Shown: one piece after another, positions 4,149 to 25,177 of the stretch | How positions within the stretch are numbered: position 1 is the stretch's first letter | How the letters are laid out: the number at the start of each line of letters is the position of its first letter | Assembly (NCBI GenBank): GCA_964454395.1 | Contig: CAYVTN010000001.1 | Location: 1-25,178, forward strand | DNA length: 25,178 bases | Direction of reading: 5' to 3' | Source: an uncultured bacterium | GTDB taxonomy: Bacteria > Oederibacteriota > JAAXVQ01 > JAUVAV01 | The notes under the pieces: generated by a model | The model's input: the letters and a program-made list of their open reading frames with translations, nothing else | What the model was told of the DNA's origin: nothing | Databases searched by the model: none | Position numbers and translations under genes: made by a program

Positions 4149-4175
4149 GTATTTATCCTCCCATTTTAAATTTCA

Positions 4176-6401
4176 TTAAAATTTCCATGTATATCCCAAA
4201 TTCACCCGGTAAAGGGTCTGGCCCTTCAGGTAATCATCTATGGCGCCGTTATAGGCTATCGGATTTTCAAAAACATTATACGCCGCGGCCACAAAGCTAA
4301 ATTGATCAATATTAAAGCCCAGGCTGACGTCGTATTGCGGCAACCATTTGGAAGCCCTGTAAACTTCGCTAACTATATTACCATCCTTATTGATCTTTGT
4401 CGGGCTGGCGGCCACGTGGGCATAGAAATTAAGAAAAACCATATCTCTATAATGCAATTCCAGCACCGCGTTGGCAATGTTGGCCACGCCTTGATCCCAG
4501 GAAGGATGAACCGGTTCCTTCCGGGCATAGAGGTTGATGCGGCTGTAATTCAGCTTGACCCGGGTATAATCGGTGGGCGCAATGTTGGTTTCCAATTCAA
4601 ATCCGTGGCCAATGCGGCTGTTGGAATTGTCCCAGCTTACAAAGGCAGGCGCCACATTCAACGCTTGCAGATAGAGAAATCCGGGCGTGGACGGCTGCAT
4701 GGGATCAAGTAAGCTGAAGTCAGGCACATAGGCATAAAGGTTTCCAAAGGTATAGGCGAATTGGATTTCATTCTGGGTTTCCCAGTAAAAATAATCGGCC
4801 TTGGCCTGAAACCATTTGCCGATTTCATATTCCACGCTGGCCTCGCTCTGCTGGATGCTTTCCGGCTTAAGGTCCATATTGCCTTGGACCTCATAAAAGC
4901 CGTAATCCATCAAGGCATAGCGTTCAAAAATAACCGGCGAACGGAAGGCGCTGCCGTAAAGGGCTTTGAAACGCAATCCTTTAAGGGGTTCATAGATCAA
5001 ACTTTCCCTGGGACTGAGGTTGCTGCCGTAATCGAGATTGTAGTCGTAGCGCAGGCCGCTCAAGAGGATCAGTTGATCCCCCAAGTGATATTCGTCCTGC
5101 AAAAAAACGGCATAGTTGTTGTCCGTCACCTGGGCCTGATTATAATAATCAATGTTGGACCATCCCAAGTCCACATTCACGCCGGCCAGGAGGTAGTTGT
5201 TTTGCGGCCACGACAGGTCGTATTGCGCCTCGGCGATTAAATCATTCGTCTGACCCCGGCCCAAATCCACCACATCCAGGGCGCCACCGGTAGCGATTTT
5301 AAGAAAATCATTAAAGTCTATGTAATATTCACCCACGGTATTGTTAATGTCGAAGTCCATATTGCCCTGCTCATCTACAATAACCCACGGCGTCGGTGTG
5401 GGCAGGTCGCTCGAGCTGTTGATCTTTCTTCGGGTGATATCCCAATATTCACTGCGCAGGGTCCTGGTCAGGTTATAATTGTCGGTAAGATGGAATTTAA
5501 GATTGGACAGCTCGTTGAGGGTCAGCTTGTACGTGCTGTCCAGGTAGATGGACTCCAATTCTTCCGTATTTCTCGGGGTCGGCGTCCATTCCGAACCGCT
5601 CCAGGGATTGCTGTTTTTTTGATAGCCGCCCTTCAAGGTCCATTGGTCTTTCCATTTCAGGCTGAAGTCCGCCGAATCCCCGGTATACAGGCTGTTGGGA
5701 TCAGTGCCGTTGTAAGGATCAATGCCCAATTCCCTCCAGTAGCCGGCCGAGACTTTATAATCCCAGTCTCCGGTTTTATGGCCGTAAGTCATGGTATATT
5801 TCTGCGAAACTTCAAAGTCACCGGCTTTGTTGCCCACGCTGACTTCGGTGGCCAGCCCGCCAATCTCCGCACCGTCCTTGGTCACGATATTGATCACCCC
5901 GGCATAGGCATTGGCGCCATAAAGCGATGAGCCAGGACCTTTAATGACTTCGATTTGTTTGACATCGGTCAGGTTAGTGCCGAATTGGCCGTCATAATTG
6001 CCCCAATCCATGTTATTCACTTTACGGCCATCCACCAGGACCAGGATTTTATTGTTGTAGGAAGCCTGCATGTCGCGGAAGCGCATGGTATTGAACAGGC
6101 CTTCATTGTTAAAACAAACACCGGTAATATTGATCAGGGCATCATAAATGGTGAGCGCTCCGTATTCCTTGATTTCCTTTTCCGTAACAATGGTCACCGA
6201 CCCGGGCACTTCCGAAAGCTTTTGCAGGCGTTTGGTGGCGGACATGACCAAGATGTCGTCACTGAACAGCATGAGTTCCGTCACCTGGCCAAGGTTGTCT
6301 CCTGCTTTGGCCAAGCCGATCAGACTGTTTGACAAAATCACCATCATGGTAAAACAGAGAATAAGTTTTGCTGGAGTTCGCACGGCCAACCTCCCTCTCA
6401 T
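4176..6401 (-). CDS. TonB-dependent receptor, paralog 2 (alternative start GTG at 6383)
   Basis: Same plug and barrel motifs as paralog 1 and a C-terminal Phe. GGGAGG lies 6 nt before the in-frame GTG at 6383, which may be the true start. The gap to paralog 1 is 27 nt. Confidence 0.92.
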   Translation of the reverse strand: MRGRLAVRTPAKLILCFTMMVILSNSLIGLAKAGDNLGQVTELMLFSDDILVMSATKRLQKLSEVPGSVTIVTEKEIKEYGALTIYDALINITGVCFNNEGLFNTMRFRDMQASYNNKILVLVDGRKVNNMDWGNYDGQFGTNLTDVKQIEVIKGPGSSLYGANAYAGVINIVTKDGAEIGGLATEVSVGNKAGDFEVSQKYTMTYGHKTGDWDYKVSAGYWRELGIDPYNGTDPNSLYTGDSADFSLKWKDQWTLKGGYQKNSNPWSGSEWTPTPRNTEELESIYLDSTYKLTLNELSNLKFHLTDNYNLTRTLRSEYWDITRRKINSSSDLPTPTPWVIVDEQGNMDFDINNTVGEYYIDFNDFLKIATGGALDVVDLGRGQTNDLIAEAQYDLSWPQNNYLLAGVNVDLGWSNIDYYNQAQVTDNNYAVFLQDEYHLGDQLILLSGLRYDYNLDYGSNLSPRESLIYEPLKGLRFKALYGSAFRSPVIFERYALMDYGFYEVQGNMDLKPESIQQSEASVEYEIGKWFQAKADYFYWETQNEIQFAYTFGNLYAYVPDFSLLDPMQPSTPGFLYLQALNVAPAFVSWDNSNSRIGHGFELETNIAPTDYTRVKLNYSRINLYARKEPVHPSWDQGVANIANAVLELHYRDMVFLNFYAHVAASPTKINKDGNIVSEVYRASKWLPQYDVSLGFNIDQFSFVAAAYNVFENPIAYNGAIDDYLKGQTLYRVNLGYTWKF

Positions 6402-6479
6402 CAGTCTTTAACCTGTCAATAGTTTCGGCATGCTGATTATAAGCTTAACGGGAAATTAACCGGACGGTCTTCTGTTTGA

Positions 6480-6509
6480 CTCAACTTTAGCAAAGTTGCC
6501 AAAGTTGAA
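6480..6509. repeat. REP-like palindrome CTCAACTTT-AGC-AAAGTTG, second copy with a duplicated right arm
   Basis: 6480-6498 is identical over 19 nt to 1035-1053, and is followed by CCAAAGTTGAA. Confidence 0.8.
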
Positions 6510-6614
6510 TTTTTGATTTTTTCAGCATCACAACAACATGATTTTTGCGCTGTTCCGATTGAAAAGGCTGTGAAATCTTAATTTTACATACATTTTTTTC
6601 GCTGTGTAAATAGC

Positions 6615-6781
6615 TTCTGTTGCGGAAAGAACAATTTCTCTATCTCCTCTCCCCCCATGTTTGTTGGGGGATCACATCCATCCTCTCTGTGCCCGGAACG
6701 GGCATCCGACTTCGCCGGACTATGGTCCCAAGATGAGAAGAATATTTATTAAGATCAAAAAAATCTTTACGCAATAGAAAC
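6615..6781. repeat. Small element bounded by inverted repeats (MITE-like), copy B
   Basis: Left end TTCTGTTGCGGAAAGA (6615-6630) matches the reverse complement of the right end 6764-6779 at 14/16. The interior is homologous to 877-902 and 954-1088. It starts about 10 nt downstream of the paralog 3 stop codon. Confidence 0.8.
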
Positions 6782-6790
6782 CGGACAGGT

Positions 6791-8986
6791 TTAAAAACCC
6801 AACGTATAGGAAGCATTGATGCGGCAAAGCGGCTTACCCCGCAGGTAATCCCCATTTTTTTCATTGTAGTCCAAGGGGTTGTTAAAAATATCAAGCGCGG
6901 CCACCACCACGCTGAGTCCGCCGATTTTACATCCCAGGCTAACATCGTATTGCTGCGTCCATTTGGATTCAATCTTTTTGCCTTTTATGTCCAAAAAATC
7001 ATCGCCATAAGCCACAGGCACGCGGGCCGTATGGGCATAAAAATTGAGAAATAGCAGATCCTGATAGTGCAGTCCCAACACCGCATTGGCAATGTCACTT
7101 ACGCCTTCAGCCCATTCGGGTGCCACCGGTTTTTTACGGCCATACAGATTAACCCGGCTGTAATTTAATTGGATCCGGGTGAACTCCGTAGGCGCTATGG
7201 TTATTTCCAGTTCCAGGCCATGTCCAATACGGCTGTTGGAATTGTCCCAGCTCACAAAGGCAGGTGCGATATTCAATTGATCAGTATAAAACAATCCGGG
7301 AGCAGCGGGCATCAAGGGGCTGATCAGGCTCAAATCCGGCGAATAAACGTAAAGCGATCCCAGGGTATAGGCAAACTGAATTTCATTGGCTGTTTCCCAG
7401 TAAAAATAGGCGGCTTTGGCACGAAGCCATTTGCCTGACTCATATTCCACGCTGGCTTCGCTTTGCTGCACGCTTTCCGGCTTGAGGTCGGGATTGCCGT
7501 TGGCCTCATAAAAGCCGTAATTGGTCTTGGTGTAACGTTCCAGGAAAACCGGGGCTCTAAAGGCGCTGCCGTAAAGGGCTTTAAAGCGAAGTCCCTTGAA
7601 GGGTTCATAGATCAGGCTCTCCCTGGGACTGAGGTCGCTGCCGTAATCCTGGTTGTAGTCATAACGGAGGCCGCTGAGCATGATCAAGCGGTCCGCCAGA
7701 TGGTATTCATCCTGAAGGTACACGGCATAATTTTGATCGGTCACTTGACCGCCCAAAATATAATTTTGATCAACCCAGTTATAGTTGAAATTGATGCCTG
7801 CCAACAGATAATTGTTCTGAGGCCAAGCCAGGTCATACTGAAGCTCCAGCACGAGCTCGTTGAGACGCCCTTTGCCCAGATCGACTACTTCAAGCGCACT
7901 GCCGCTGGTAACACGCAATAAATCATCGACGCCGATATAGTATTGTCCCAGCGCGTTGTCCGGGAGTTCTATCTGCCCTTGGTCCGTGAAAATCATCGAT
8001 GGCGTCAGCGAGGGAAAATCGGCAATGCTGTTTATTTTTTTTCGATGCAGATCCCAAGTTTCGGTTTCCACCATCCGATCGGCGTAATAATTGTCGGTCA
8101 AATGCACCTTAAGACTGGAGAGATCATTAAGTTCCAGTTTGTAGGTGCCGTCCAAATAGAGCATGTCCTGCTTTTCATGGTTGCGTGGTGTAGGCGTGAA
8201 GGTCGAGCCATCCCAGGGGGTGGTGGAGTCAAGATAGCCGCCCTGTACCATCCAATCGTCCTTGAACTTGAGCTTAAAATTGGCGTCCGCCCCGGTATAC
8301 AGATCATTGGGATGGTCCACATTGACCGGATCAACGCCCAGGGCGCGCCAATAACCGGCGGTCACCTTGTAATCAAGAGTGCCTTTTTTACCGCCATAGG
8401 CAAGATTGTATTTTTGGGAAATTTCAAAATCGCCCGGTTTATTGGCGAGGCTGATGTCGGTTTTTACCCCTCCAATATCAGCACCATCCTTGGTGACAAT
8501 ATTGATGACACCGGCGTAGGCATTGGCCCCATACAAGGAAGACCCCGGGCCTTTAATGACTTCGATCTGTTTAACGTTGCTTAAATCCGTCCCGTATTTC
8601 CCATCATAATTGCCAATGTCCATGGTGTTGATCTTCCGGCCGTCCACCAAAACCAGGATTTTGTTATTATAAGCTGATTGCATTCCCCGGAAGCGGAGCG
8701 AATCGAACAAGCCCTCATTGATAATGACCACATCGGTCATATTGCGCAGGGCTTCATAGATCGTCAAAGCCCCGCTCTCCTTGATCTCTTTTCCCGTGAT
8801 AATGGTCACGGACCCCGGCACTTCCGAGAGCTTTTGCAGGCGCTTGGTGGCGGACATGACCATGACCTCGTCGCTGAAGAGCATCAGTTCCGTGACAGGA
8901 CTTAAATTATCCATCGCCATAAGGATGGGACTGCACCAAGCGGTCATCACCATAGCCATCAGACCCATGGTAAGATATTTTTTCAT
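6791..8986 (-). CDS. TonB-dependent receptor, paralog 3 (start revised from 9037 to 8986)
   Basis: Strong RBS AAGGAGGGGG before ATG 8986 (MKKYLTMGLMAMVMTAWCSPILMA signal peptide). Same plug and barrel motifs, C-terminal Phe. Confidence 0.92.
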   Translation of the reverse strand: MKKYLTMGLMAMVMTAWCSPILMAMDNLSPVTELMLFSDEVMVMSATKRLQKLSEVPGSVTIITGKEIKESGALTIYEALRNMTDVVIINEGLFDSLRFRGMQSAYNNKILVLVDGRKINTMDIGNYDGKYGTDLSNVKQIEVIKGPGSSLYGANAYAGVINIVTKDGADIGGVKTDISLANKPGDFEISQKYNLAYGGKKGTLDYKVTAGYWRALGVDPVNVDHPNDLYTGADANFKLKFKDDWMVQGGYLDSTTPWDGSTFTPTPRNHEKQDMLYLDGTYKLELNDLSSLKVHLTDNYYADRMVETETWDLHRKKINSIADFPSLTPSMIFTDQGQIELPDNALGQYYIGVDDLLRVTSGSALEVVDLGKGRLNELVLELQYDLAWPQNNYLLAGINFNYNWVDQNYILGGQVTDQNYAVYLQDEYHLADRLIMLSGLRYDYNQDYGSDLSPRESLIYEPFKGLRFKALYGSAFRAPVFLERYTKTNYGFYEANGNPDLKPESVQQSEASVEYESGKWLRAKAAYFYWETANEIQFAYTLGSLYVYSPDLSLISPLMPAAPGLFYTDQLNIAPAFVSWDNSNSRIGHGLELEITIAPTEFTRIQLNYSRVNLYGRKKPVAPEWAEGVSDIANAVLGLHYQDLLFLNFYAHTARVPVAYGDDFLDIKGKKIESKWTQQYDVSLGCKIGGLSVVVAALDIFNNPLDYNEKNGDYLRGKPLCRINASYTLGF

Positions 8987-9046
8987 TTCCCCCTCCTTAG
9001 TATCGTCGCCCCCCTGAGAAACGCTAATAATCCTCACGCTAATAGT

Positions 9047-9250
9047 TCAGGGTATAATGGCGACCGATCTGGGCACTTCCGAAAGCTTCTGCAACCGTTT
9101 GGTGGCGGACATGACCATGATTTCGTCGCTGAACAACATGAGCTCCGTCACCTGCCCAAAACTGTCCAGAGCCTGAACCCCTTAAAATGAACTCAGAAGC
9201 GCTGAAGCAAATACCAGCATGGTTATAATTATTCTCATGAGAGCACGCAT
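9047..9250 (-). pseudogene. Truncated 5' remnant of a fourth TBDR paralog
   Basis: Hand translation: MRALMRIIITMLVFASALLSSF*GVQALDSFGQVTELMLFSDEIMVMSATKRLQKLSEVPRSVAIIP*. There is an in-frame TAA at codon 23, and homology to the paralogs stops at the start of the plug domain. Confidence 0.9.
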
Positions 9251-9486
9251 AATCCCGCCTCTTATCAAGCTTTCAAGGCAATGGAAGTTACGGCATTTTT
9301 TGCTTTCACTTGATAAATCCAGGCAGGTTTGGGCTCAAGCAGCAGCCTAAAGGCTATCCCAGCCCTTGGATTTTTGGGGGGATTCATTAAGGTGGCATCG
9401 AACATGGACTGAAGCAGCTATTGAATCTATGCAGGTCCGGGTTGAAGGCCGGATGGGTTTAACTGAGACGAGCGCGTTGGCATGCT

Positions 9487-9540
9487 GTTGAAAAAACCGG
9501 ATGGCTCTCTTCCCGGGCAACCTTGTAAGGATTTTTCAAC
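9487..9540. repeat. Inverted repeat GTTGAAAAA/TTTTTCAAC downstream of the SprA-like gene
   Basis: Perfect 9-bp arms at 9487-9495 and 9532-9540, extendable by CC/GG after one mismatch. It lies 24 nt after the stop codon and has no classical U-tract. Confidence 0.45.
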
Positions 9541-9564
9541 CATGTGTTAGAATTTGCATCGGAA

Positions 9565-12500
9565 TTAAAATACGGCCGTAATACCCGCTTTGACACTGAT
9601 GGCCCAATAATCGTGATCAACTTCAATGTGGTCAAAGTACCATTGATTGGTCACTTTGATATCGCCTTCCACATTGCGCCAGAGGGAGTAGTTGATGGTC
9701 GTATCATTGGTGTATTCGTTGACATTTTTATTGTAGAGGGACGTTTTGATGGGTTCGTTATGGTAATATTCTTTATTGTCGGTAAACTTGATATTAAAAT
9801 AATTGGTTAGCCTTAACGTTTGCTCAAGTTTAATCAAGGCGCCGTTAAAAGGCCAAAAATTGGGCAGCCGGATGGGATCTACCATGTTCAAATTATAGTT
9901 AAAAGAAATACCGGCATCGTATTCATTTTGCACCAGTTCCTTGCTCAAATCATCCCCCGAGGCCTGGTGCTGCGTCATCAATTTCCCGGTCAAGGTGCCA
10001 CTTAAATCCGCGGTAAGACGGAACGGAACGGTAAGCGAAGTGGTGTGGGTGGTATTAAGCGTGGAGACGACATTTTTGGCATTAAGCTGCTTGTTCAAAT
10101 CGTAACGGTAATCCAAATTGAGGGTTTGAAAAGCCAGCCAATCAAAAGACGGCACTTTGGACCAATTAAAAGTTCCGCCCAGGGACTCGGTCTCGGTCGT
10201 GATATAATTGTCCCGGGTATTCATGTTTTTGGTCCAGGTGGTGGAGTATTGCGGGGCCAGGGTGACATTGGGAATGAAATTGACACTGGTCGTAAGGCTG
10301 TCCGTCTTCTTTCTGGAGTTAATATACGCGTTGTTTAATTTTTCATCGTCATCCTGAAAGGTCTTGGGATCAATAAGCCATTGATCCTGAAAATCGAGTT
10401 GATCAATGGTTTGGTTGTCCTGTTCATATTTATAAGTCGCCGAACGGGTGTATGTTTCATTGAAACTGAATTGCGGGAAGGCATTCCATCCCAGGATATC
10501 CCCCAGATTAATGCCTGATTGGATGCTCAGGGTGCCCGGCGTGGAAAGTGAATCCTGAATATAATCGCGGTTATTGGTCATGGTATAACTCAGCGACGGT
10601 GAAAGCACGGGAATGCTGCTGATATTAACATTTAGTTTGGCAATCTTGTCCAATTGGGCATTGCGTAACTCATCGGATTTGTAACGATCCGCGGGATTGA
10701 GTTCATAATTGTCACGGTAATAATAACGATAGAGAGACAGAAAACCTCGGTTGCGGGTGCGTGAATAGGTAAATTGGGGGGTGAGGCGCAAAAACCGAAC
10801 GGGCGAATAGTTGCCGGAATAGGTGTAACTTTCCTCCCAACTGTGCTCCCACCGCGAATAATAGGCATCCCGGGCTGAAATGCTGTTGCTCAGGCTGTCG
10901 ATGTCTTCTTGATTATACATGGTATGGGTGTCGGTGTAAGTCAGTTTGCCGCTCACGGTGGTGGTGCCAATGGGAAAATTAAAGATCCTGTCCGGCAAGG
11001 AATAAGAAACCTGCGGATTGACCGACGAAGTTTCCTCGATACTGTTGGGCTGGGTGCGCTGTACAATATACTCACGCACGCTGCGGCTCCGGTTGGTGTG
11101 CACTGAAATATCAAGCCCGGGAATTTGGCTATATCCGATGCTGCCGGATAAGGTTTCAGTGGTCAAATCAGGGTTGGTAAAATTGTTGGAATAAGAAAAA
11201 TCGTCACGGTTTTCCTGCTCGGTGTAGCTTTCATTTCTGGACCAGCTCATCTCGACCGGCATAAAACTGAATTTGGTGAGCGACCCGGACACCTGCTCGC
11301 TGACCTGGCGCTGCTTGCCCACCGGCGATTGATCAATGGTAAAGAAGTCGGAATCCACGTCACGGTGGTCGGTACGGATGGTGAACACGTCACCCCACTT
11401 GGTGGCCGTGCTGACGCGGTAAGCCATTCCCTGCTTGGAGCGGGCGCCGGTCACACGCAGGTTGTTGATCCAAATGGCCTCCACCCCGGATGTGGCGTTG
11501 GGATTATAAACCCCGATGGAGATGGTTTTAATGTTATTGAGGCCGGGCAGGATATTTTCCCCGAACACTTCCTTCCTTTTCCCGTCGCTGTCGTCCAACT
11601 CCAAAGTGACCGTATTCCAGGCGCTTATGGGCTGCAATTGATCCAGGGGCAGGCGGTATTCATAATAATTATTGTCGTCAATGCCCAGGCGTACAAAGAC
11701 ATATTCCCCGGCCGCGGTCTGGGTCTGTTTATAAATATCAAGCCGCAAATAGCGGTAACGCGAATAATCATAACCCTGGCTGGCCGTGGTGAGCGTCCGG
11801 GTAAAATAATAGGCCGGCGTATTGCACTGGCTGTCCGCCGGATCGGTCACATCCCGGTTGGTCAGGTTATACTCCAATTTGAGTGATTTCTCGTTGAGCA
11901 ATTGTTGCTGTTCATTTTGTGTCTCATCAATGATGTAAAAATAAGTGTTAGGCACATACTGACTGTCGGTTTCCAGGCTGATGGCCGTGGTGTTGATTTT
12001 GTCGGAAGGCACGGCGCTGATGGAATTGCCCAGGCTATCCACGGCGCCCGGGGCAACCACAGGCTGCCATTTATTGCCGGTCAGATTAATGGATTCGAAT
12101 TGAACGTACCCGCTCTGGTCCGCCGCGCTCTGCCCGGTCATCCACATGCGGACATGTTTGACAAAACTCATAAAGGCCTGGTCCTGCGGGTTGATATTGA
12201 CCGCGCCGCTGGTGGTGGTAAAGGCACTCAGGGGAATTTTATAGATATGCCAGCCCGGCTGCAGGTTAACACTGTATTCATAGTAGCTCTCCACCGTGTC
12301 CAACTGGTCGTTATTATCCATATCCTCGTTGTCTATCTGACTGTTGCCGTCTCCCCAGTAACCGGCGGGCGCACCCTGGGGAAAAATCCCTTCTCCGATG
12401 TTCCCGGCTGTCTGATCCCGGCCAATGACAGGCTGATTGGTGATGGGATCGTAGCCTACAATGGTATTAACCGGTCCCACGTCATAGCCCTCTATTTTTT

Positions 12501-15500
12501 TCTGACGGTCCCCTTCAAAATTGAGCTTCCCGTTGCCATTGCTGTCTTCGCTGACCAGCCCCAGATCCACATTAAGCTTAACGGCGGTGGATGACGGTGC
12601 GGAGGAATAGATAACCATTTCCAGGAACCGGTATTCATGCAGGTTGGACCCGGAACTGCTCAAAGGATAGACAAAGCCGTCCCAGCGGTTGCTGTTAAGG
12701 CCGTTGTATTCCCAGCGCAACTGGTGCTTTTTATCATTGCTGTCCACCGGCGTGCGCCCGTACTCATAGACCACGGACGGTTTGATGTACTTGCGCTGGT
12801 TCGGATCAGGAAAACTGCCGGTGGAAGGCCGGCTGGAGGGCGACCAGATATTGTTGGCATTGGCGCCGACAGGCAAAGAGAGCACATTGTCCGACCCGTC
12901 CATGTTGTCCACCATGGCCACGCCGTCTTCCCCGGCTTTGCGGTAAGTGTTCAATTCATAGTGGCTGTAGGCGCCCTCAGCCGACACATTAACCGAGAGC
13001 GGTATCTTGGCGTCTCCGAAAAGAGGATGCAACATGTCGGAAAAATCCTTGGGGTTGAGGTTGAGTTGCATATCGGCGTCGTAGATGGCAAGGGATGTGG
13101 GCGCTGAATTGACATCGGGAATATCCAGCGGCGTTTGGCTGGCATTGTATAAAAAAGTGGATCCTATGGTCAGCCGCTTGTCGATAACATCATATTCCGC
13201 CCGGGCGCCGAATAAATTGGTCTGATATTGCCCGCCAAAAGGCAGGTATTCGTAGGTAATGCTGATATCACTGCTGCTGGCAATACTGTCGGGGTTAAGA
13301 AAGGTGATGAAGCCCGTATCGTAATCGATGAAGTAATCCGTGTTGCGTTGCATTTTCAACCCGTCCTTGCGGATCACTTCCGAATCCTTGATGACATTCC
13401 AATGGGAAAGGTTGAAAGTGGAAATGGTGTTTTTAAATTCCACATGAATGGAGATGTTGTTGGCAATGCTGTTGTTGCTGCCGCCAAGGGTGGTGTTGTA
13501 AACCGAACTGTAGGCGTCTTTCAGGCTGTTGTTATAAGCATCCGATTTATAGCGCAGCGACGGATTCCCGAGGGTGTCGGCGGTAAAGGGATAATCATGC
13601 CTGAAGGTAATGGTGCCGAAGGTGGAATCAATCGTGTAAATCTTTTCGGCATTCAGGGTATCCGTGGGCAGGGGCAAGGAATACTCTTCGCCGTCACTTT
13701 TGGTTATTTTCATGACAAAATCACGGTCACTCTGGGGATCCACAATGTTCTGATAGCCCAGAGTATAGCGCTGCATGAGCATCATGATGTAATTATTGGA
13801 GAGGGCGGGATTGCTGGTATTGTAGTCCTGAATAAGGTGGGCGTTGTCATTGGTCTTGCCGTCAGTGGGAACATTGAGGGTGCTGTAATCCAGATTAATC
13901 TCCCCGTTGAGGTCATAACCCACGCTGTGTTCCGCGCCGGCGTTGTCCGTGTAGCGGTAGGCCACGGCCACAGACCAGGTCTGGGCAACCGGCTGGGTAA
14001 AGGTTACAATGCCCAACTGATAGTCCACCGTATAATCGATGCCCGGAGAAAGGCGGTTGTAAAAAATATTGTCGGTGGGCGCATTACTGGCCGGCCGGGA
14101 ATTGGTGTCATTCACGCCGTTGCGCACCCAAATCTCGACCGATTGGGGCACAATGCCGTGAATCGTCTGGTTAGGGTTGCTGCTGCTGTAAAAGTCCTGT
14201 TTGGAGTTATAAATAGGCAGGTTATAATTATTGACCTGAGCGGGCCAATCCTTGGTTAAATAATAATACCGGTAGGCCACAAAACTGGTGTCCGGAATGT
14301 CGATTTTTTTGGGGGACGTATTGCCTTTGAAACTCTCGGTGACCGTGATGCCCTTGGTTTGCGCGCCAATGGCGGTAAGGTTAAAGCCACCGTAGCCTAC
14401 CTTGACCTTGGCGCCAAAGAGATTTTTGTTGTACCCCGCAAATTCGGTCTTATCCAGATCCAGGTTAATGTCGCCAAAGGCTGCTTCCTGGACCACTTCA
14501 TCCGGATCCCCGGCGTACTTGATGGAAATTTTGCGCTGTTCCTCCTGGGTGTCGTCATAATCCACGTCCACCGTGATTTTTTTGCCCACTTTGCCTTCCA
14601 GGCGCACCTGTAGCTCCTGCTCCAGGTTAAACCCTTTTGTCAACCCTGAACCCAAAGCAGGTATGGGATTAGCGTCATCGGATTTGCTCAAACTGACGAT
14701 ATCAGTGTATCCAATATCAATTTTTTTCCGTCCTGATATCGTCAGGGATGAATTGGGTGGCAGCCCGGGAATGGCGGTGGAGAGAATCCCCTGTTTGGGA
14801 ATGGCGACGGGTTTGAGGGGTGAAGCCGTGACTTCCTCCGAAGGCGGGCTTTCATGATCCTGATTATCCACAGCCTTCACCAGGTAGGTATATTCCCTCC
14901 CCAGAATAGGTTTGGTGGTGCTGTTTTCCTCCGAGTCCACAAAGGTGGTTCCAGCCACCATTTTTTTGTTAATGGGCTCCCCGTAACCGGTCTCCTTGTC
15001 ACTTTTCCGGTAGATTTGATAGCCTTTCAGGCCATAACTGCCTGCGGTGGAAGGGGCCCAAGTCAAGCTGATCATGTCATCCGATTTCGGAGTGGCGTCG
15101 GGTTGCAGCGGCGAGGTGGGCGGAGCAAAAGGCGTGCTCTCCACCGCCACGGCCGGTTGGGAACGGTTGCCGGCATTGTCCTGGGCAAAGAAGGTGTAGT
15201 AATAGGTCCTGCCATTGACCAAGCCATGTTGGTTGTCGCCGCGATCGGTGTACGCCTCCGCTTTCAGGGGTTCGGTAAATAAAGGTTCTCCCAGTTGTCC
15301 TTTTTCAGTGGACCGGTAAATCATATAACCGCACAAGCCGAATTCCCCGCCTGAAAAAGAAGGCAACCATTTCAGATGCACTGATTGGTTGCCGGCCGTG
15401 GCTTCTACGGCCCCTGGTTGGCAAAGCATGGGAATATTCAGTACCTTAAGCGGTGTGGAGGAGGAGTTACCCCGGCCGTCGATGCTGATAACGCTGTAAT

Positions 15501-16008
15501 AGTAGGTCTTGCCATTTTCAGGCGGACTGGTGGAAAAGCCGGACACGTCCAGGAAATACTCATCCATCAGAGGGGAAGGATTGACCGGCGCCGGCCAGTC
15601 CGCAGCCCAGTAACCCGTAAGTGGAGATTCTGCGCGGAACAACTGGTATTTGGGTTTACTGCCGTTGATCAAGGGAGCCGGTTCCCAGGCAATTAACACG
15701 CGGTCGCCGCCGCTTCGGGCCTCCAGCCCGGTTGGCGGCATCAGAACACTATTGTTAACCGCCGTAGTGACCGTATTGCCCGTGCTGGAAGCTGTTGCCG
15801 GGGTGGATGGATTAAGGCTTCCGGACGTCGCGGCTGCAGTCGGTGTGGCCACGGCTGCGGTTGGAGCCGACACGGCTTCAGTTGGCTTTGCCACGGGCTC
15901 TGAGGCCGCCGGCTGGGCAGCCCAAAGAGCGGACCAACTTACTATGACAGCAAGGAATAACAAAGACGTTATTCCGGCACTAACCCTCAAGACGCGTTTC
16001 AAGAACAT
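9565..16008 (-). CDS. sprA: SprA/Sov-like large outer-membrane beta-barrel protein (T9SS translocon family) with an N-terminal linker and three FN3 domains
   Basis: Signal peptide, then motifs in the order I recall for SprA: LQVRLEGKVGKKITVDVDYD, ISIKYAGDPDEVVQEAAFGDI, GAKVKVGYG, GIDYTVDYQLGIVTF, NTDYFIDYDTGFITFLNP, GARAEY..IGSTFLY, VKHVRMW, NYYEYRLPL, WINNLRV. It ends in amphipathic strands and a terminal Phe (AGITAVF). TTG at 16002 is an alternative start, with GGAGG 6 nt upstream. Confidence 0.75.
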   Translation of the reverse strand: MFLKRVLRVSAGITSLLFLAVIVSWSALWAAQPAASEPVAKPTEAVSAPTAAVATPTAAATSGSLNPSTPATASSTGNTVTTAVNNSVLMPPTGLEARSGGDRVLIAWEPAPLINGSKPKYQLFRAESPLTGYWAADWPAPVNPSPLMDEYFLDVSGFSTSPPENGKTYYYSVISIDGRGNSSSTPLKVLNIPMLCQPGAVEATAGNQSVHLKWLPSFSGGEFGLCGYMIYRSTEKGQLGEPLFTEPLKAEAYTDRGDNQHGLVNGRTYYYTFFAQDNAGNRSQPAVAVESTPFAPPTSPLQPDATPKSDDMISLTWAPSTAGSYGLKGYQIYRKSDKETGYGEPINKKMVAGTTFVDSEENSTTKPILGREYTYLVKAVDNQDHESPPSEEVTASPLKPVAIPKQGILSTAIPGLPPNSSLTISGRKKIDIGYTDIVSLSKSDDANPIPALGSGLTKGFNLEQELQVRLEGKVGKKITVDVDYDDTQEEQRKISIKYAGDPDEVVQEAAFGDINLDLDKTEFAGYNKNLFGAKVKVGYGGFNLTAIGAQTKGITVTESFKGNTSPKKIDIPDTSFVAYRYYYLTKDWPAQVNNYNLPIYNSKQDFYSSSNPNQTIHGIVPQSVEIWVRNGVNDTNSRPASNAPTDNIFYNRLSPGIDYTVDYQLGIVTFTQPVAQTWSVAVAYRYTDNAGAEHSVGYDLNGEINLDYSTLNVPTDGKTNDNAHLIQDYNTSNPALSNNYIMMLMQRYTLGYQNIVDPQSDRDFVMKITKSDGEEYSLPLPTDTLNAEKIYTIDSTFGTITFRHDYPFTADTLGNPSLRYKSDAYNNSLKDAYSSVYNTTLGGSNNSIANNISIHVEFKNTISTFNLSHWNVIKDSEVIRKDGLKMQRNTDYFIDYDTGFITFLNPDSIASSSDISITYEYLPFGGQYQTNLFGARAEYDVIDKRLTIGSTFLYNASQTPLDIPDVNSAPTSLAIYDADMQLNLNPKDFSDMLHPLFGDAKIPLSVNVSAEGAYSHYELNTYRKAGEDGVAMVDNMDGSDNVLSLPVGANANNIWSPSSRPSTGSFPDPNQRKYIKPSVVYEYGRTPVDSNDKKHQLRWEYNGLNSNRWDGFVYPLSSSGSNLHEYRFLEMVIYSSAPSSTAVKLNVDLGLVSEDSNGNGKLNFEGDRQKKIEGYDVGPVNTIVGYDPITNQPVIGRDQTAGNIGEGIFPQGAPAGYWGDGNSQIDNEDMDNNDQLDTVESYYEYSVNLQPGWHIYKIPLSAFTTTSGAVNINPQDQAFMSFVKHVRMWMTGQSAADQSGYVQFESINLTGNKWQPVVAPGAVDSLGNSISAVPSDKINTTAISLETDSQYVPNTYFYIIDETQNEQQQLLNEKSLKLEYNLTNRDVTDPADSQCNTPAYYFTRTLTTASQGYDYSRYRYLRLDIYKQTQTAAGEYVFVRLGIDDNNYYEYRLPLDQLQPISAWNTVTLELDDSDGKRKEVFGENILPGLNNIKTISIGVYNPNATSGVEAIWINNLRVTGARSKQGMAYRVSTATKWGDVFTIRTDHRDVDSDFFTIDQSPVGKQRQVSEQVSGSLTKFSFMPVEMSWSRNESYTEQENRDDFSYSNNFTNPDLTTETLSGSIGYSQIPGLDISVHTNRSRSVREYIVQRTQPNSIEETSSVNPQVSYSLPDRIFNFPIGTTTVSGKLTYTDTHTMYNQEDIDSLSNSISARDAYYSRWEHSWEESYTYSGNYSPVRFLRLTPQFTYSRTRNRGFLSLYRYYYRDNYELNPADRYKSDELRNAQLDKIAKLNVNISSIPVLSPSLSYTMTNNRDYIQDSLSTPGTLSIQSGINLGDILGWNAFPQFSFNETYTRSATYKYEQDNQTIDQLDFQDQWLIDPKTFQDDDEKLNNAYINSRKKTDSLTTSVNFIPNVTLAPQYSTTWTKNMNTRDNYITTETESLGGTFNWSKVPSFDWLAFQTLNLDYRYDLNKQLNAKNVVSTLNTTHTTSLTVPFRLTADLSGTLTGKLMTQHQASGDDLSKELVQNEYDAGISFNYNLNMVDPIRLPNFWPFNGALIKLEQTLRLTNYFNIKFTDNKEYYHNEPIKTSLYNKNVNEYTNDTTINYSLWRNVEGDIKVTNQWYFDHIEVDHDYWAISVKAGITAVF

Positions 16009-16380
16009 CCTCCAATTGCACTACACCTTTGTAAAACAAGGTCACTGGTTGCGGAACCGGGTGGAAACCTATCTTTTTGGTGTACAGATCATTAATATTG
16101 ACAGTTTATCATTATCTTCTTACAAATAACCTTTCAAAATATCATTGATGAAATTTTCCCTAAAAATCTGGTTCCTTTATTATCCCCGACCTTTTGGGTA
16201 GTGGCAAGTTTATTCTCTATTAGCTTTAAAAATCAAAGCCATTATATTTGTCCATTGTATATTAACGGCGATTTTAGTAAAATTCCTAACATATATGATT
16301 TCCGGGGAAATGTATTTTCGTACCTGCCGGGATGGTCATTTTTGGTTCAATCCCCTACATGGGCCGGCAATGTCCGCACA

Positions 16381-16415
16381 AGGCAGGGGCTCAAGATGCT
16401 GCCGAGCCCCTGCTT
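16381..16415 (+). promoter_or_regulatory. GC-rich hairpin just upstream of the glycosyltransferase RBS
   Basis: GCAGGGGCTC (16383-16392) / GAGCCCCTGC (16404-16413) form a perfect 10-bp stem with an 11-nt loop. The GAGGAG RBS follows at 16423-16428. Confidence 0.4.
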
Positions 16416-16434
16416 CAATTCTGAGGAGTTTGTC

Positions 16435-17943
16435 TTGAAATTAACCTCTACCGCAAAATTTTATCTCACCCTGGCGCTCCTGACGGTTTTCAGGCTTTTG
16501 ATCATCGGCCATTTTGAATTGGCTCCTGACGAGGCCTATTACTGGACCTGGTCGCAGCATCTGGACTGGTCCTATTATGACCAGGGGCCCATGCTGGCGC
16601 TTGTTATCAAAGCCTTCACCTTGCTCTCCGGCCATGTCAGCGAATGGTCCGTGCGCCTCGGTTCGGTGCTCCTTTCCGTCATTAGTTCCATGTTGATTTT
16701 CTATACCACCAAAAGGCTTTTCCGGAGCGAGCGTGCCGCTTGGCTGGCTTTTTTAGGGCTTAACATCACTTTGCTTTTTTCAGCCGGCGCCCTTTTAATG
16801 ATGCATGACAGCATCATGGTCATGTTTTGGATGGCAGCCCTTTATTTCTTTTACCGGGCCGTGGTGGAAAACCGGCACTGGGCTTGGGGGTTGGGCGCCT
16901 TGATGTTGGGCCTGGGCGGGCTTTCCAAATATACCATGGCTTTGTTCGTTCCCGGTCTGTTGTTGTTTCTGCTGCTTTCTCCCCAAGGCCGGGCTTTTTG
17001 GAAAAAACCTTACCTGTACCTGGCCGGAGCACTGACCATAATTCTGGTCTCGCCCATTGTTTTCTGGAACATTGCCCACCATTGGGCATCCTTTAACCAT
17101 ATCGGGGATCTGGGCGGCGTGCATCAACGCCACTGGTTGCATATTAAATCCGTGGGCGATTTTTTGGGCGGCCAACTGGGCGTATTGTCGCCGTTGATGG
17201 GCCTGTTTTGCCTGGCCGCACCCTGGATCGGATGGCAAGAATGGCGGAAAAAGGGGGATTATGCCCAAGCCTATCTTTGGCTGTTTTCCTTTTCCGCACC
17301 AACCCTGCTGTTCTTTTTCCTGTTGTCCTTTAAAACCGAGGTTTACGCCAACTGGCCCGCCCCGGCTTATCCGGCGGCCTTGATGCTGCTGGCCGGCTGG
17401 ACGGACAGGTTGTTGCAGGGTCCGATGGGCCGGCGTACCAAAACATGGCTGGCCGCGACGCTGATCGTTTCCTTTATTTTTACCGGTGTGGCCCATCTGC
17501 AAGTGCTCCATCCCTTCCTGCCCCTTACCGGCAGGGCGGCTGATTCCGTCAATCGTATCCGCGGTTGGCGCGAAGTGGGCACCCAGGCCGGCATCTGCCT
17601 GCGGCAATTGCAAAAGCAAAGCCAAGCGCCCGTTTTTTTGGCTGCCCGGCGTTATCAAATCGCGGGGATTCTTTGGTTTTACACCCCCGGCCATCCTGAA
17701 GTTCAGTTGCTGGCGCGGTATGATCCTGCCAAAAGCCAGTTTCAAATTTGGGACCGCAGGGATCAACTGGCAGGTCATAATGCGGTCTACGTTTGTCAGG
17801 ATCAGTGGGAAGTGGATCATGTACGCCGTTTTTTTGAAAAAGTGGTGGCGTTGCCCGACTTTGAGGTCATCCGTGGCCGTGACCACATCAGAACCATCAA
17901 ATATGTTTTCTGCTATCATTTCAAAGCCGGGAAGCAGCAGTGA
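16435..17943 (+). CDS. Membrane glycosyltransferase, GT-C fold (ArnT/PMT_2, GT39/GT83-like); start revised from 16201 to TTG 16435
   Basis: APDEAYYWTWSQHLDWSYYDQGP motif after the first TM, SVRLGSV, LGLGGLSKYT and many TM helices. RBS GAGGAG lies 6 nt before the in-frame TTG. The upstream ORF extension has no family features. Confidence 0.85.
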   Translation: MKLTSTAKFYLTLALLTVFRLLIIGHFELAPDEAYYWTWSQHLDWSYYDQGPMLALVIKAFTLLSGHVSEWSVRLGSVLLSVISSMLIFYTTKRLFRSERAAWLAFLGLNITLLFSAGALLMMHDSIMVMFWMAALYFFYRAVVENRHWAWGLGALMLGLGGLSKYTMALFVPGLLLFLLLSPQGRAFWKKPYLYLAGALTIILVSPIVFWNIAHHWASFNHIGDLGGVHQRHWLHIKSVGDFLGGQLGVLSPLMGLFCLAAPWIGWQEWRKKGDYAQAYLWLFSFSAPTLLFFFLLSFKTEVYANWPAPAYPAALMLLAGWTDRLLQGPMGRRTKTWLAATLIVSFIFTGVAHLQVLHPFLPLTGRAADSVNRIRGWREVGTQAGICLRQLQKQSQAPVFLAARRYQIAGILWFYTPGHPEVQLLARYDPAKSQFQIWDRRDQLAGHNAVYVCQDQWEVDHVRRFFEKVVALPDFEVIRGRDHIRTIKYVFCYHFKAGKQQ

Positions 17944-19139
17944 TGAAAACCCTGCGCGCTTATGTCCTGAAGGAGTTAATCTTTCCCTTTTTAATGGGGC
18001 TGACCGTGTTTACCTTCATCCTGGTGATGGACCGTATTTTCACGCTCACCGACCTTATCGTGAAGTACGGCGTATCGGTATTCACCGTACTTAAATTGCT
18101 GTTTTTCATCCTGCCGTCCACCTTCGCCATCACCATTCCCATGGCTTGCCTGGTGGCGGTCATGGTGGCTTTTTCCCGCCTCAAAAGCGACAATGAACTG
18201 ACGGCCATGAAAGCTTCGGGCATCTCTTTGCTCCCCCTGGTGGGCACCACCCTGGGATTGGGAGCGGTTTTAACCGCGGCCATGATCATCTTCAACAACA
18301 CCGCCCTGCCCTATGCCAATTACGCCTACCGTGATCTGTATTTCAAGATCGTCAGCCAGCGCGCGGCCATTGTCATCGAAGACCATGTTTTCGTCGAGGA
18401 TTTTGACGGTTACGTTTTTCGCGTGGGACAGAAAAATCCCATTACGGGTCAGTTAGAAGACGTGGTGGTCTTTGTGCGTGACAAAAAAAAAGACAAGGAT
18501 TTCAGAACCATCGTGGCTAAACGGGGACAACTCATCAGCGACCAGGAGAATCACCGGGTTATGCTTAAACTGGAAGACGGGTACATGCAGATGGTGCAGC
18601 GCAACGACCTGAAGACTTTTTCCCAAATTTACTTCCGCACCAATTTCCTTGATCTGGATATCAACCGCGAGCTGGCCAATTCCGACCGCCAAGCTTCACG
18701 CAGCGCCCGGGAAATGACCATGGGTCAGATCAAAAAGGAGATTGCCAAACGGCGCCAAAATGGCGGCGATATCCGGCTGCTGTGGGTGGAGTATTTCAAG
18801 AAAACATCCATTCCTTTTGCATGTTTCGCTTTCTTTTTGATCGGTGCGCCGCTGGGCATTCTGGCGCCGCGTTCGGGCAAATATTTTTCTTATTTCATCG
18901 GGGTTCTTTTGATTTTTGTTTATTATATTTTCATTTCCCTGGGGGAAACCTTCGGGGCTGACGGCAAAATGTCTCCCTTTTTGTCCATGTGGCTGCCCAA
19001 TTTAATTCTGGTGGGCGCCGGCGCCTACTGCCTGGCCTGGGTAATCATGGAAAAAGCGCCCTTTTTGGCCGGTTTGCAGCAGCGCTGGTCGCAACAGACC
19101 ACCGGGCGTTCCGCTCCCCGGCAGGAGTCAAGACGATGA
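17943..19139 (+). CDS. lptF: LPS export ABC transporter permease LptF (YjgP/YjgQ family)
   Basis: YVLKEL..PF N-terminus, SRLKSDNELTAMKASGISL, a periplasmic beta-jellyroll region, and C-terminal KKTSIPFACFAFFLIGAPLG and WLPNLI. The ATG overlaps the upstream TGA. Confidence 0.9.
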   Translation: MKTLRAYVLKELIFPFLMGLTVFTFILVMDRIFTLTDLIVKYGVSVFTVLKLLFFILPSTFAITIPMACLVAVMVAFSRLKSDNELTAMKASGISLLPLVGTTLGLGAVLTAAMIIFNNTALPYANYAYRDLYFKIVSQRAAIVIEDHVFVEDFDGYVFRVGQKNPITGQLEDVVVFVRDKKKDKDFRTIVAKRGQLISDQENHRVMLKLEDGYMQMVQRNDLKTFSQIYFRTNFLDLDINRELANSDRQASRSAREMTMGQIKKEIAKRRQNGGDIRLLWVEYFKKTSIPFACFAFFLIGAPLGILAPRSGKYFSYFIGVLLIFVYYIFISLGETFGADGKMSPFLSMWLPNLILVGAGAYCLAWVIMEKAPFLAGLQQRWSQQTTGRSAPRQESRR

Positions 19140-20245
19140 GTACCTTGTCCAAATATATTTTGAAGGAATTCCTCAAACCGCTCTTTTTCACCATTCTTGT
19201 GTTTGTCGGCCTGTATATCATTTCCCAGATGGTGGATGAGATGCGCTCTTTCGTCAACAACAAACCCGACCTCATTTTGATCGTGCTCTATTACCTTTAC
19301 CGCGTGCCCTATTTTTTCGTGCAAATCCTGCCCATGTCCGTTCTGCTGGCGTCCTTGTTTTCCCTGGGCCAGTTGGCCCGACAAAATGAACTGATCGCCA
19401 TACGCAGCTGCGGCATAGGCTTTTTTAAAGCAGTCTCCCCCATTTTGGCGGTTTCATTGGTTTTGGTCGTCATGGTGCTGGCGTTCAATGAACTGGTGAT
19501 CCCCTACACCAATCCGCGCGCCAGCCGCATCAAACGGGTCTCCATCGAACACAAAGACGATGAGTCCCTGCATTTGCAGCGCGATTGGATAACCCGCAGC
19601 GTTTCGGGCAACAGAATCCTGCACGCCCACCATTTGGATGCCCGGTCCGGGACCATGCAGGATGTAACGCTCTTAAAATTCCGTGACCAGCTGCACATGG
19701 AGAGCAGAATTGATGCACCGACCGCGCATTGGATAAAAGGCCATTGGATCTTCATGCGGGGCGTCCTGCGCCGCTTTGATGAGAAAGGACGCATGACCGC
19801 TTACGAACGGTTTTCCAAGCTGGCCTTGCCTTTCCGGGAGCTGCCCCGGGAGTTTATCCGCCAGGAAAAAAAGGACGACCAGCTGCTTTCCACGCCTTTG
19901 CGGGAACTGAGCTACCAGATAAAGCTTTTAAAAGAGATCGGCATTGACCCGAAAAAAGAAGAAGTCTATTTTCATTTAAAAATTGCCTTTCCTTTTGCCA
20001 ACTTCATTCTGGCCTTGCTGGGCGTGTCCCTGCCTTTTGTTTTCCCCACCGGCAGGCGCAGCATTGTCTGGACAGCCATCGGTTTTGTGATCACCATCAT
20101 CACCGCCTTTTTTTATATCGGCTTTATTGCCGTGGGATCGTCCTTTGGAAAAAACGGCATGTTGTCACCCATGCTGTCGGTTTGGATAGCCAATATGGTG
20201 TTCGCGGTGATCGGCATCTGGCTGATGACCAAAGCCCGCAGTTAA
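19136..20245 (+). CDS. lptG: LPS export ABC transporter permease LptG (start revised from 18989 to 19136)
   Basis: LSKYILKEF N-terminus, LARQNELIAIRSCG, KIAFPFANFILALLG and WIANMVF. ATGA overlap with the lptF stop, RBS AGGAG. Confidence 0.9.
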   Translation: MSTLSKYILKEFLKPLFFTILVFVGLYIISQMVDEMRSFVNNKPDLILIVLYYLYRVPYFFVQILPMSVLLASLFSLGQLARQNELIAIRSCGIGFFKAVSPILAVSLVLVVMVLAFNELVIPYTNPRASRIKRVSIEHKDDESLHLQRDWITRSVSGNRILHAHHLDARSGTMQDVTLLKFRDQLHMESRIDAPTAHWIKGHWIFMRGVLRRFDEKGRMTAYERFSKLALPFRELPREFIRQEKKDDQLLSTPLRELSYQIKLLKEIGIDPKKEEVYFHLKIAFPFANFILALLGVSLPFVFPTGRRSIVWTAIGFVITIITAFFYIGFIAVGSSFGKNGMLSPMLSVWIANMVFAVIGIWLMTKARS

Positions 20246-20258
20246 AAGAGGAATTTGG

Positions 20259-20735
20259 TCAAGCCAGCACAATATCCAATATTTCGTATTTCTTCAATCC
20301 GGCCGGAATCTTGATTTCTATCACTTCCCCTACCGAATGGCCGATCAAGCCTTTGCCAATGGGCGAGGTGGCGGAAAGTTTTCCACTGTTAAAATCAGCT
20401 TCAGCCGGAACCACCAGCGTATATTCCAATTCATCTTCATTATTCAAATCCTTGAGTTTAACCTTTTGGCCCACCGACACCTTGCCCTCGGGAATATTGG
20501 ACCGGTCGATAATCTGGGCGCTTGCCAATTGGTTTTGCAATTGTTGAATTCTCAGCTCCAATTTGGCTTGTTCTTCCTTGGCCGCATCATATTCGGCATT
20601 TTCCGATAAATCGCCGTGTTCCCGTGCCACCCTTATCGCCTCCGTAATTTCACGGCGCTTGGGCCCTTTCAAATAAGTCAATTCTTCCTGCATTTTGTCA
20701 TACCCTTCCTGGGTCAGGTAAACCTTGTCCGACAT
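20259..20735 (-). CDS. greA: Transcription elongation factor GreA
   Basis: YLTQEGYDKMQEEL, AREHGDLSENAEYDAAKEEQ and SATSPIGKGLIG. RBS GAGGAGG. Confidence 0.97.
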   Translation of the reverse strand: MSDKVYLTQEGYDKMQEELTYLKGPKRREITEAIRVAREHGDLSENAEYDAAKEEQAKLELRIQQLQNQLASAQIIDRSNIPEGKVSVGQKVKLKDLNNEDELEYTLVVPAEADFNSGKLSATSPIGKGLIGHSVGEVIEIKIPAGLKKYEILDIVLA

Positions 20736-20928
20736 AAAAACCTCCTCGTTTATCCGGGTTCTGGCCTAGGACCCCGGGTATTGAGCGCCCGGGCTCCAGT
20801 GCATTTGAAATCCGCTTCCGCTTAAAAACCTCCATTTTAGTCACAAGCAAAAAAAATGTCAAATGGATGAATCCGGGCATCTGATGGATTGCTTTTTTTC
20901 TCATTTCTTTCTAAAATAAACGTAACTG

Positions 20929-21101
20929 GTTCTTTTTGCGGAAAGACAAATTTTCCGAAAAGCCGTCATGGGTATTGTATCCATCCTTAGGCGGCATTGA
21001 GAAAAAACGCTTCAGCGAGCGTTTTTTCTCTCTGAAGCGGTTTGCTCTGCAAACCGCTGACCGCCTAAGGATGGGTACAATACCCAATCCGCAACAGGAA
21101 C
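20929..21101. repeat. Nested inverted-repeat element, copy C (same end family as A and B, different interior)
   Basis: Ends GTTCTTTTTGCGGA (20929-20942) and TCCGCAACAGGAAC (21088-21101) are inverted at 12/14. Inside is a 26-bp stem (20969-20994/21061-21086, one G-T) enclosing perfect 13-bp and 10-bp hairpins. Confidence 0.85.
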
Positions 21102-21158
21102 TAACTACTCAGGTTTTTTGCGTTTCCGGCTTGGATACGCAAGAGACCTGAGTAGTTA
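21102..21158. repeat. Long hairpin TAACTACTCAGGT...ACCTGAGTAGTTA (REP-like)
   Basis: Perfect 13-bp outer arms (21102-21114/21146-21158). The stem continues to 26 positions with two G-T pairs and one mismatch, and has a 5-nt loop. Confidence 0.8.
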
Positions 21159-21231
21159 CAAATAAATTATTATTCGGCAAGGTACAACCCCTCTCACAGG
21201 AGGCGGGCATTCGCATCAATGGAATGAAAAC

Positions 21232-25021: not shown

Positions 25022-25177
25022 CATTTTCTTTTTCGGGCTTTGGACACCTTCCCTGCCGCCGGGGTAGGCAAGACCGCAGGGCATCACCCCTAATCCCAAA
25101 GGTTTTCAAAGGGGGCTGAGGTGCGTCCTCGCGATCGGCGTGAGTCGAGTCCCAATTTAAGCCCGAAAAAGAAAATG
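25022..25177. mobile_element. 156-bp element with perfect 19-bp terminal inverted repeats (MITE-like or structured RNA)
   Basis: CATTTTCTTTTTCGGGCTT (25022-25040) is the exact reverse complement of AAGCCCGAAAAAGAAAATG (25159-25177). The interior is GC-rich and non-coding. The right flank is cut by the window edge. Confidence 0.55.

Follow-up and report, generated by a model that had tools for sequence, protein, structure and literature searches.

The window analyzed here, a stretch of 25,178 nucleotides (nt) comprising positions 1 to 25,178 of contig CAYVTN010000001.1 (assembly GCA_964454395.1), is ordinary chromosome of a Gram-negative bacterium. The DNA originates from salt-marsh and wetland metagenomes, and the source organism is a member of candidate division FCPU426, as indicated by an aminotransferase with 80, 79 and 77% amino acid (aa) identity to proteins of FCPU426 or "Goldiibacteriota" metagenome-assembled genomes (MAGs). 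Besides this aminotransferase, the window encodes a ComF-like phosphoribosyltransferase, three tandem TonB-dependent receptors, a PMT_2 glycosyltransferase, LptF, LptG, GreA, a GAF/HAMP histidine kinase and a 2147-aa SprA_N protein. Three palindromic blocks, designated A (871-1088, ~218 nt), B (6613-6781, 169 nt) and C (20929-21101, 173 nt), lie in intergenic DNA and are non-coding; the sole open reading frame (ORF) that overlaps B (6640-6972, starting with TTG) is a mechanical one that reads into the next gene. The blocks share an end motif, GTTTCTGTTGCGGAAAG. We put at roughly 0.87 the probability that this motif is the 17-bp terminal inverted repeat of ~1.65-kb insertion sequences (ISs) related to ISNCY and IS5, and that A, B and C are transposase-less miniature inverted-repeat transposable elements (MITEs) of that IS group.

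Within the window, the 15-nt core of the motif, TTCTGTTGCGGAAAG, is found at 6615-6629 (+) in B and, with 15/15 matches, at 1072-1086 (-) in A. It recurs with two mismatches at 6765-6779 (-) and with three at 20931-20945 (+) and 21085-21099 (-). These five sites with three or fewer mismatches compare with 0.87 expected, and none of 100 shuffled sequences reached five. When the 17-mer is used, the same sites show 0, 1, 2, 3 and 3 mismatches, with an expectation of only 0.10. They resolve into two inverted pairs, one bounding B (6613-6629 and 6765-6781) and one bounding C (20929-20945 and 21085-21101), plus the solo right end of A (1072-1088). This is the arrangement described in the original prediction, made from the window alone, whose quoted strings are all present and whose coordinates are off by three bases at most. 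Adjacent sequences also match, GCGGAAAGAACAATTT in B resembling GCGGAAAGACAAATTT in C, and TCCGCAACAGAAACTA in A resembling TCCGCAACAGGAACTA in C. A and B are homologous over 76 nt at 89% identity (local-alignment score of 65 versus a shuffle maximum of 15). In contrast, the interior of C, which the prediction had called unrelated to the other two, scores 10 and 8 against A and B, no better than the shuffle means of 9.5-10. Equally accurate was the statement that the window carries no transposase: a tblastn search of the window with the family transposase gave a best E value of 0.22.

The identity of the motif emerged from loci elsewhere. Exact scans for the motif together with NNNNNTTT returned more than 116 stretches in the GTDB genome set and more than 120 in the metagenome set. 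All counts of ISs, MITEs and ends given below refer to loci among the matches listed from these scans. The matches come from Nitrospirota/Thermodesulfovibrionia, Planctomycetota, Kiritimatiellia, FCPU426, Bacteroidota and other groups, and many of them lie ~100 nt from a contig end, the signature of a repeat that breaks assemblies. By length, inverted pairs of the motif separate into one group of 1638-1684 bp and another of ~113-240 bp. The 17-mer bounds ~30 elements of the long class, each with one transposase ORF. Their anatomy comprises a 5' non-coding segment of 45-115 nt, a single ORF of 453-493 aa and a 3' non-coding segment of 181-197 nt.

The protein made from the long elements is a DDE transposase. 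Pfam DDE_Tnp_1 matches it weakly, and the NCBIfam model NF033593 (transpos_ISNCY_1) matches it over its full length, with 366.9 bits for the copy at locus L113 as compared to a cut-off of 325. NF033593 was the best family for all 20 diverse copies tested (40-78% identical), some of which score under its cut-off (L133, for example, with 278 versus 325). The IS5 and IS1182 models come as distant seconds. The IS5 family has the same DDE fold class, and its model NF033578 reaches an E value of 1e-43; however, the hidden Markov model match is the weaker one and IS5-family models remain far under their own cut-off (149 versus 275). Residues D150, D364, E416, R412 and K423 are invariant in the 20 transposases, the last three forming an R(3)E(6)K signature, and D150/D364/E416 are the predicted catalytic triad. 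The transposase family is very large: more than 5661 clusters at 90% identity were found at E ≤ 1e-20, most of them on contigs of ~1.6-2 kb. Thus the parent elements have the properties of ISNCY ISs, namely a DDE transposase of ~455 aa, a length of ~1.65 kb, terminal inverted repeats and a short duplication, and the elements in the window differ from them in being transposase-less derivatives only. ISNCY comprises two large subgroups, IS1202 and ISDol1 (PMC8147514). Family members go by the name "IS5 family transposase" at JGI. The parent IS presumably belongs to the ISDol1 group of ISfinder, whose members have sizes of 1.6-1.9 kb and duplications of 6-7 bp; its own size and duplication fit those figures. 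The nearest named relative annotated in plasmids is ISRm17 of Sinorhizobium, whose transposase is only ~31% identical; its putative ends (TGTGCGGGCAA) resemble the motif loosely, and the likeness was judged not informative. The motif also has a CTGTTGC core in common with the IS6/IS26 ends, GGCACTGTTGCAAA. Identity with that group was dropped on account of the transposase, which is ISNCY/IS5-like and not of the IS6 type, making the resemblance coincidental.

A position table built from 318 ends reads TA-[A/G]-[T/C]-TA followed by GT-TTCTGTTGCGGAAAG. The element proper therefore runs from GTTTCTG to CAGAAAC, and its ends read TAnnTA|GTTTCTG. The two flanking 6-mers are identical for 10 of 36 ISs (permutation mean 2.9, maximum 9) and for 9 of 29 MITEs (mean 0.7, maximum 4); in 19 of the 29 MITEs the central dinucleotide of the flanks agrees, as opposed to 4.1 expected. 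Such an excess over permuted controls identifies a 6-bp target duplication of sequence TANNTA, so that the search for target-site duplications suggested by the prediction gave a positive answer at the level of the family. This duplication differs from those typical of the IS5 groups. Flanks that fail to match are no surprise, as copies may recombine and metagenome assemblies may be chimeric. A case in point is a Thermodesulfovibrionales MAG in which two ISs (L018 and L096) have reciprocal flanks, TAGTTA...TACCTA and TACCTA...TAGTTA; inversion by recombination between the two copies would produce this pattern. Paired ends are the rule, accounting for 74 of the 122 good ends that have 1.8 kb or more of room (2% expected by chance) and for 44 of the 56 ends with an intact TANNTA flank, so the motif is not a mostly solitary sequence. 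Head-to-tail elements sharing a single TAATTA were seen at three loci (L227, positions 37-1855, L135 and L216), where a MITE lies beside an IS or an IS beside an IS. They fit with the duplication recreating the preferred TANNTA target.

The small elements number 42, measure ~110-360 bp and fall into 19 unrelated interior classes. None of the interiors gave a blastn match to any of 30 ISs. The original prediction had envisioned a non-autonomous family whose unrelated members share their ends, and this is borne out: what defines the family is the terminal inverted repeat alone, with no transposase nearby. The prediction had also allowed for the motif being simply the end of a known IS with no cargo variation; the motif does turn out to be the end of a recognizable ISNCY-type IS, but the variation between interiors is real. 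At L227, a 171-nt MITE of the FCPU426 type adjoins a full IS, the two having a TAATTA in common, which joins this MITE physically to a complete IS. Even there, only the terminal 17-27 nt are alike. For the sampled set, we rejected an origin of the MITEs by internal deletion of the IS, given that the similarity is confined to these terminal nucleotides and that interior blastn matches are lacking.

Elements A and B align with a 168-171-nt MITE present in FCPU426 MAGs (L019, L106 and L082) and at L041 and L227; A-B type MITEs occur on several FCPU426 MAG contigs. Canonical copies have perfect duplications (TAATTA/TAATTA at L019, TATTTA/TATTTA at L106). Alignment with L019, L106, L227 and L041 identifies A as a left-truncated copy of this ~170-nt MITE; A also matches L043 and L082 by blastn. 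Its right inverted repeat (1072-1088) is perfect (17/17) and is followed by TAATTA (1089-1094), a flank that fits the TANNTA consensus. The left ~35 nt, inverted repeat included, are gone; where the prediction spoke of a degenerate left end, there is no left inverted repeat at all. A further carries insertions of 40 nt (963-1002) and 27 nt (~1029-1055). In B, the inverted repeats at 6613-6629 and 6765-6781 have one and two mismatches, respectively. Relative to the canonical form, B has the 40-nt insertion in common with A (6686-6725) and a deletion of ~45 nt. Its flanks, TAAATA on the left (6607-6612) and CGGACA on the right, retain no intact target duplication. The place of B is taken by an additional TonB-receptor paralogue in L319, a syntenic relative, so that the absent duplication could be due to rearrangement or deletion there. 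These alignments place A and B, decayed and altered by indels, in a ~170-nt MITE family occurring in FCPU426, the lineage of the window itself.

The 40-nt insertion, CCTGTGCCCGGAACGGGYATCCGACTTCGCYGGACTATRG, contains two small hairpins and is not part of the canonical MITE as found in other FCPU426 genomes. It appears private to the lineage of the window, since a 25-nt pattern taken from it had no match in GTDB genomes. Another palindrome, CTCAACTTTAGCAAAGTTGAG, is found twice in the window, at 1035-1055 inside A, as part of the 27-nt insertion with GAGATC/AAGATC flanks, and at 6480-6500, 113 nt before the left end of B; this sequence could be a further, very small mobile repeat.

Element C (20929-21101) is a MITE of another lineage. 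Its inverted repeats (20929-20945 and 21085-21101) have three mismatches each and are bordered by TAACTG on the left (20923-20928) and TAACTA on the right (21102-21107), the two copies of the duplication agreeing at 5 of 6 positions. Next to the left end is a CGGAAA..TTTCCG hairpin resembling one seen at IS ends. The interior is occupied by a nested palindrome (20969-21086) with 26-nt arms (20969-20994 and 21061-21086) around two small hairpins. In run X1, sequencing depth over C is 17-29 as compared to 3-6 in the flanking genes, and across X1-X3 elements of the C type show 4-6 times the flank depth and differing flanks. Contigs from X2 and X3 reach the left end of C from other flanks, which end in TAATTA and TAGTTA. 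One X3 contig carries a C-type copy of ~70 nt with an exact TAGTTA/TAGTTA duplication and no inner palindrome; in an X2 contig, a joint from 20967 to 21071 skips 103 nt, with 7 nt of homology at the junction. Hence, C is a multicopy MITE of its own lineage in the source metagenomes, in which the inner palindrome has been gained or lost independently.

With its nested palindromes, C has a predicted folding energy of -84.6 kcal/mol, far better than that of shuffled sequences (z -17). Together with the intergenic, multicopy distribution of the elements, this brings to mind the repetitive extragenic palindromic (REP) sequences and bacterial interspersed mosaic elements (BIMEs) moved by RAYT transposases (Y1, IS200/IS605-like), or else genes for structured small RNAs. 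We give such an origin very little credit. REP sequences have neither terminal inverted repeats nor target duplications, both of which are found here, and the ends are those of a DDE IS. A small-RNA gene is contradicted by the absence of any Rfam match at gathering threshold for the elements in the window, which excluded A, B and C as known RNAs, and interiors are not conserved between classes. A scan of B and C for terminators found none.

The right duplication of C is at the same time the first six bases of a separate repeat, a 57-nt mini-palindrome (21102-21158) composed of 26-nt arms (TAACTACTCAGGTTTTTTGCGTTTCC and GGATACGCAAGAGACCTGAGTAGTTA) and a 5-nt loop. With a depth of 83.7 versus 2-6 on either side in X1, it is the most abundant repeat seen. 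The arms bear a loose resemblance to the inverted repeat of the IS (GTYTYTTGCG); an arm used as query found no match in GTDB genomes.

This juxtaposition bears on a mechanism that the original prediction had proposed, namely that the ends collect exchangeable palindromic cargo. In such a scheme, the inverted-repeat pair would actively capture palindromic modules and interiors would be swapped between elements. The 19 unrelated classes behind one inverted repeat, none of them drawn from the IS interior, are compatible with this scheme, as are the nested palindromic insertions in A, B and C and the mini-palindrome adjoining C exactly at the target duplication. However, no interior module was seen to be common to different classes among the 19. 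Abutting insertions follow from the duplication regenerating TANNTA, exactly as for the neighbors in L227, L135 and L216, and the two short variants of C, with their 7 nt of junction homology, are explained by palindrome gain or loss through slippage at short repeats. Moreover, MITE families that share nothing but their ends with an IS were already known. We regard cargo capture as improbable; independent lineages, indels, nested palindromes and abutting insertions account for the differences. Likewise, the notion of a protein-binding scaffold that attracts other repeats finds no support beyond the inverted repeat being the presumed binding site of the transposase.

A relative lacking C was found in L319, a locus from MAG MFD02923.bin.1.27 whose order matches that of the window all the way from the receptors to the aminotransferase, with 75-81% nt identity. 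A 313-nt block of the window (20919-21231), made up of C, the mini-palindrome and 73 further nt, is replaced in L319 by only 5 nt between the same flanks (blastn breakpoints 20918/21232 in the window and 5061/5055 in L319). The kinase ATG of L319 directly follows the conserved sequence upstream of greA, and the whole 5' region of the histidine-kinase gene of the window is new relative to L319. No copy of the motif is present in the 26 kb of L319; the same MAG carries a 169-nt MITE elsewhere (L082). C is thus absent from the orthologous site of this relative, although as a sign of presence/absence polymorphism this is weak evidence, the relative being a different species and the footprint imprecise. 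The empty allele whose existence the prediction had proposed to look for was therefore obtained in L319 and was not seen in the near-identical strains of X1-X4.

The locations of the elements raise the question of whether the motif might instead be an operator, that is, a palindrome bound by a host regulator, with the elements serving as regulatory regions of the TonB receptors, greA and the histidine kinase. All three are intergenic, B adjoins a sigma-70-like -35 box and C sits between divergent genes. Against this, exactly this 17-mer is found on both sides of transposase genes in Nitrospirota, Planctomycetota, Kiritimatiellia and further phyla, target duplications are present, and in L319 the site of C is empty with its genes intact. 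The genes next to the elements are, in addition, functionally unrelated. We consider an operator function highly improbable.

Several observations weigh against reading A, B and C as MITEs of the ISNCY-type IS. Neither the window nor any of the FCPU426 loci fetched contains a full-length IS. A target duplication is absent from B, and A retains a single end. Contig joints in runs X1-X4 revealed no empty alleles of A, B or C among near-identical strains, and the empty site of L319 shows no precise excision footprint, 313 nt being gone between genomes that have diverged by ~25%. Finally, part of the perfect agreement of the repeat between loci reflects ascertainment, the search pattern having required the motif at one end. 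The absent transposase in FCPU426 loci is weak evidence, as MAGs typically lose IS copies. Full-length family members are found in the same sample types, as witnessed by a 2973-nt X4 contig with inverted repeats 1633 nt apart, and transposase fragments occur in X1-X4.

If A, B and C are indeed MITEs of this IS group, a transposase whose gene lies at another place in the genome or was transiently acquired would bind the repeats and move the elements in trans by cut-and-paste or copy-out. We infer that such trans-mobilization took place in the source organism. A, with one end lost, and B, with a diverged end and no duplication, would then be immobile relics, and C might still be mobilizable. Interior differences would have arisen from independent MITE births, indels, growth or loss of palindromes and insertions into regenerated TANNTA sites, and would probably owe nothing to a dedicated cargo-capture activity.

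Known bacterial MITEs having nothing but the inverted repeats in common with their parent IS include the Correia elements of Neisseria, the IS630-related MITEs and Nezha of cyanobacteria. The present elements are like known bacterial MITEs in measuring 70-240 nt, in having terminal inverted repeats and target-site duplications, in lacking an ORF and in being intergenic, multicopy and strongly hairpin-forming; mobilization in trans, here presumptive, and the breaking of short-read assemblies are further points in common. They differ in their inverted repeat, in the 6-bp TANNTA target, in the family of the parent and in the host, FCPU426, and the number of unrelated interiors behind a single 17-mer end is unusually high, sampling being biased. 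They are set apart from REP sequences and BIMEs by inverted repeats, duplications and a DDE IS as the partner. What is new here is the existence of MITE families in FCPU426; the kind is already known and is tied to a recognizable IS family. We found no paper tying ISNCY or ISDol1 to these MITEs, and literature hits to the motif string were chance primer matches only.

Three palindromic intergenic blocks are thereby explained as ordinary relics of mobile DNA and reveal no new mechanism. What is gained is a definition of the end sequence (GTTTCTGTTGCGGAAAG) and of the target (TANNTA, with a 6-bp duplication) for a very large and poorly described IS group, annotated inconsistently as "IS5" in some sources and "ISNCY" in others. 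The MITEs of this group are present in FCPU426, a candidate phylum without cultured members, and break up the MAG assemblies obtained from it, so that their description should be of use for repeat masking, annotation and as a source of strain-level variation markers. One could further envision that insertions, by regenerating TANNTA on both sides, seed new insertions beside or inside themselves, giving rise to "repeat nests", to new MITE interiors put together from unrelated palindromes and to rewritten promoter regions, as with the new 5' region of the histidine-kinase gene. We think this extension unlikely. Were it true, a single conserved 17-bp end would be the generator of many unrelated MITE lineages across phyla, and C with its 57-nt mini-palindrome, or the MITE and IS of L227, would be examples of such nests.

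Some features of the window lie outside the elements. The array of tandem TonB-dependent receptors (1971-9179 in the window, 17006-26401 in L319) is variable, with two extra paralogues in L319. At the place of the second of these, the window keeps a 126-nt 5' fragment (9054-9179) that is ~80% identical to receptor 5' ends. The SprA_N ORF (9565-16008, reverse strand) specifies 2147 aa with an SprA_N domain (type IX secretion/gliding); a protein of MAG MFD02923.bin.1.27 matches it from end to end with 84% identity. At the very end of the window (25022-25177), a perfect 19-nt inverted repeat (CATTTTCTTTTTCGGGCTT and AAGCCCGAAAAAGAAAATG), without a match in Rfam, surrounds 118 GC-rich nt, part of which, CACCTTMCCNGCCRCCGGGG, is conserved in L319.

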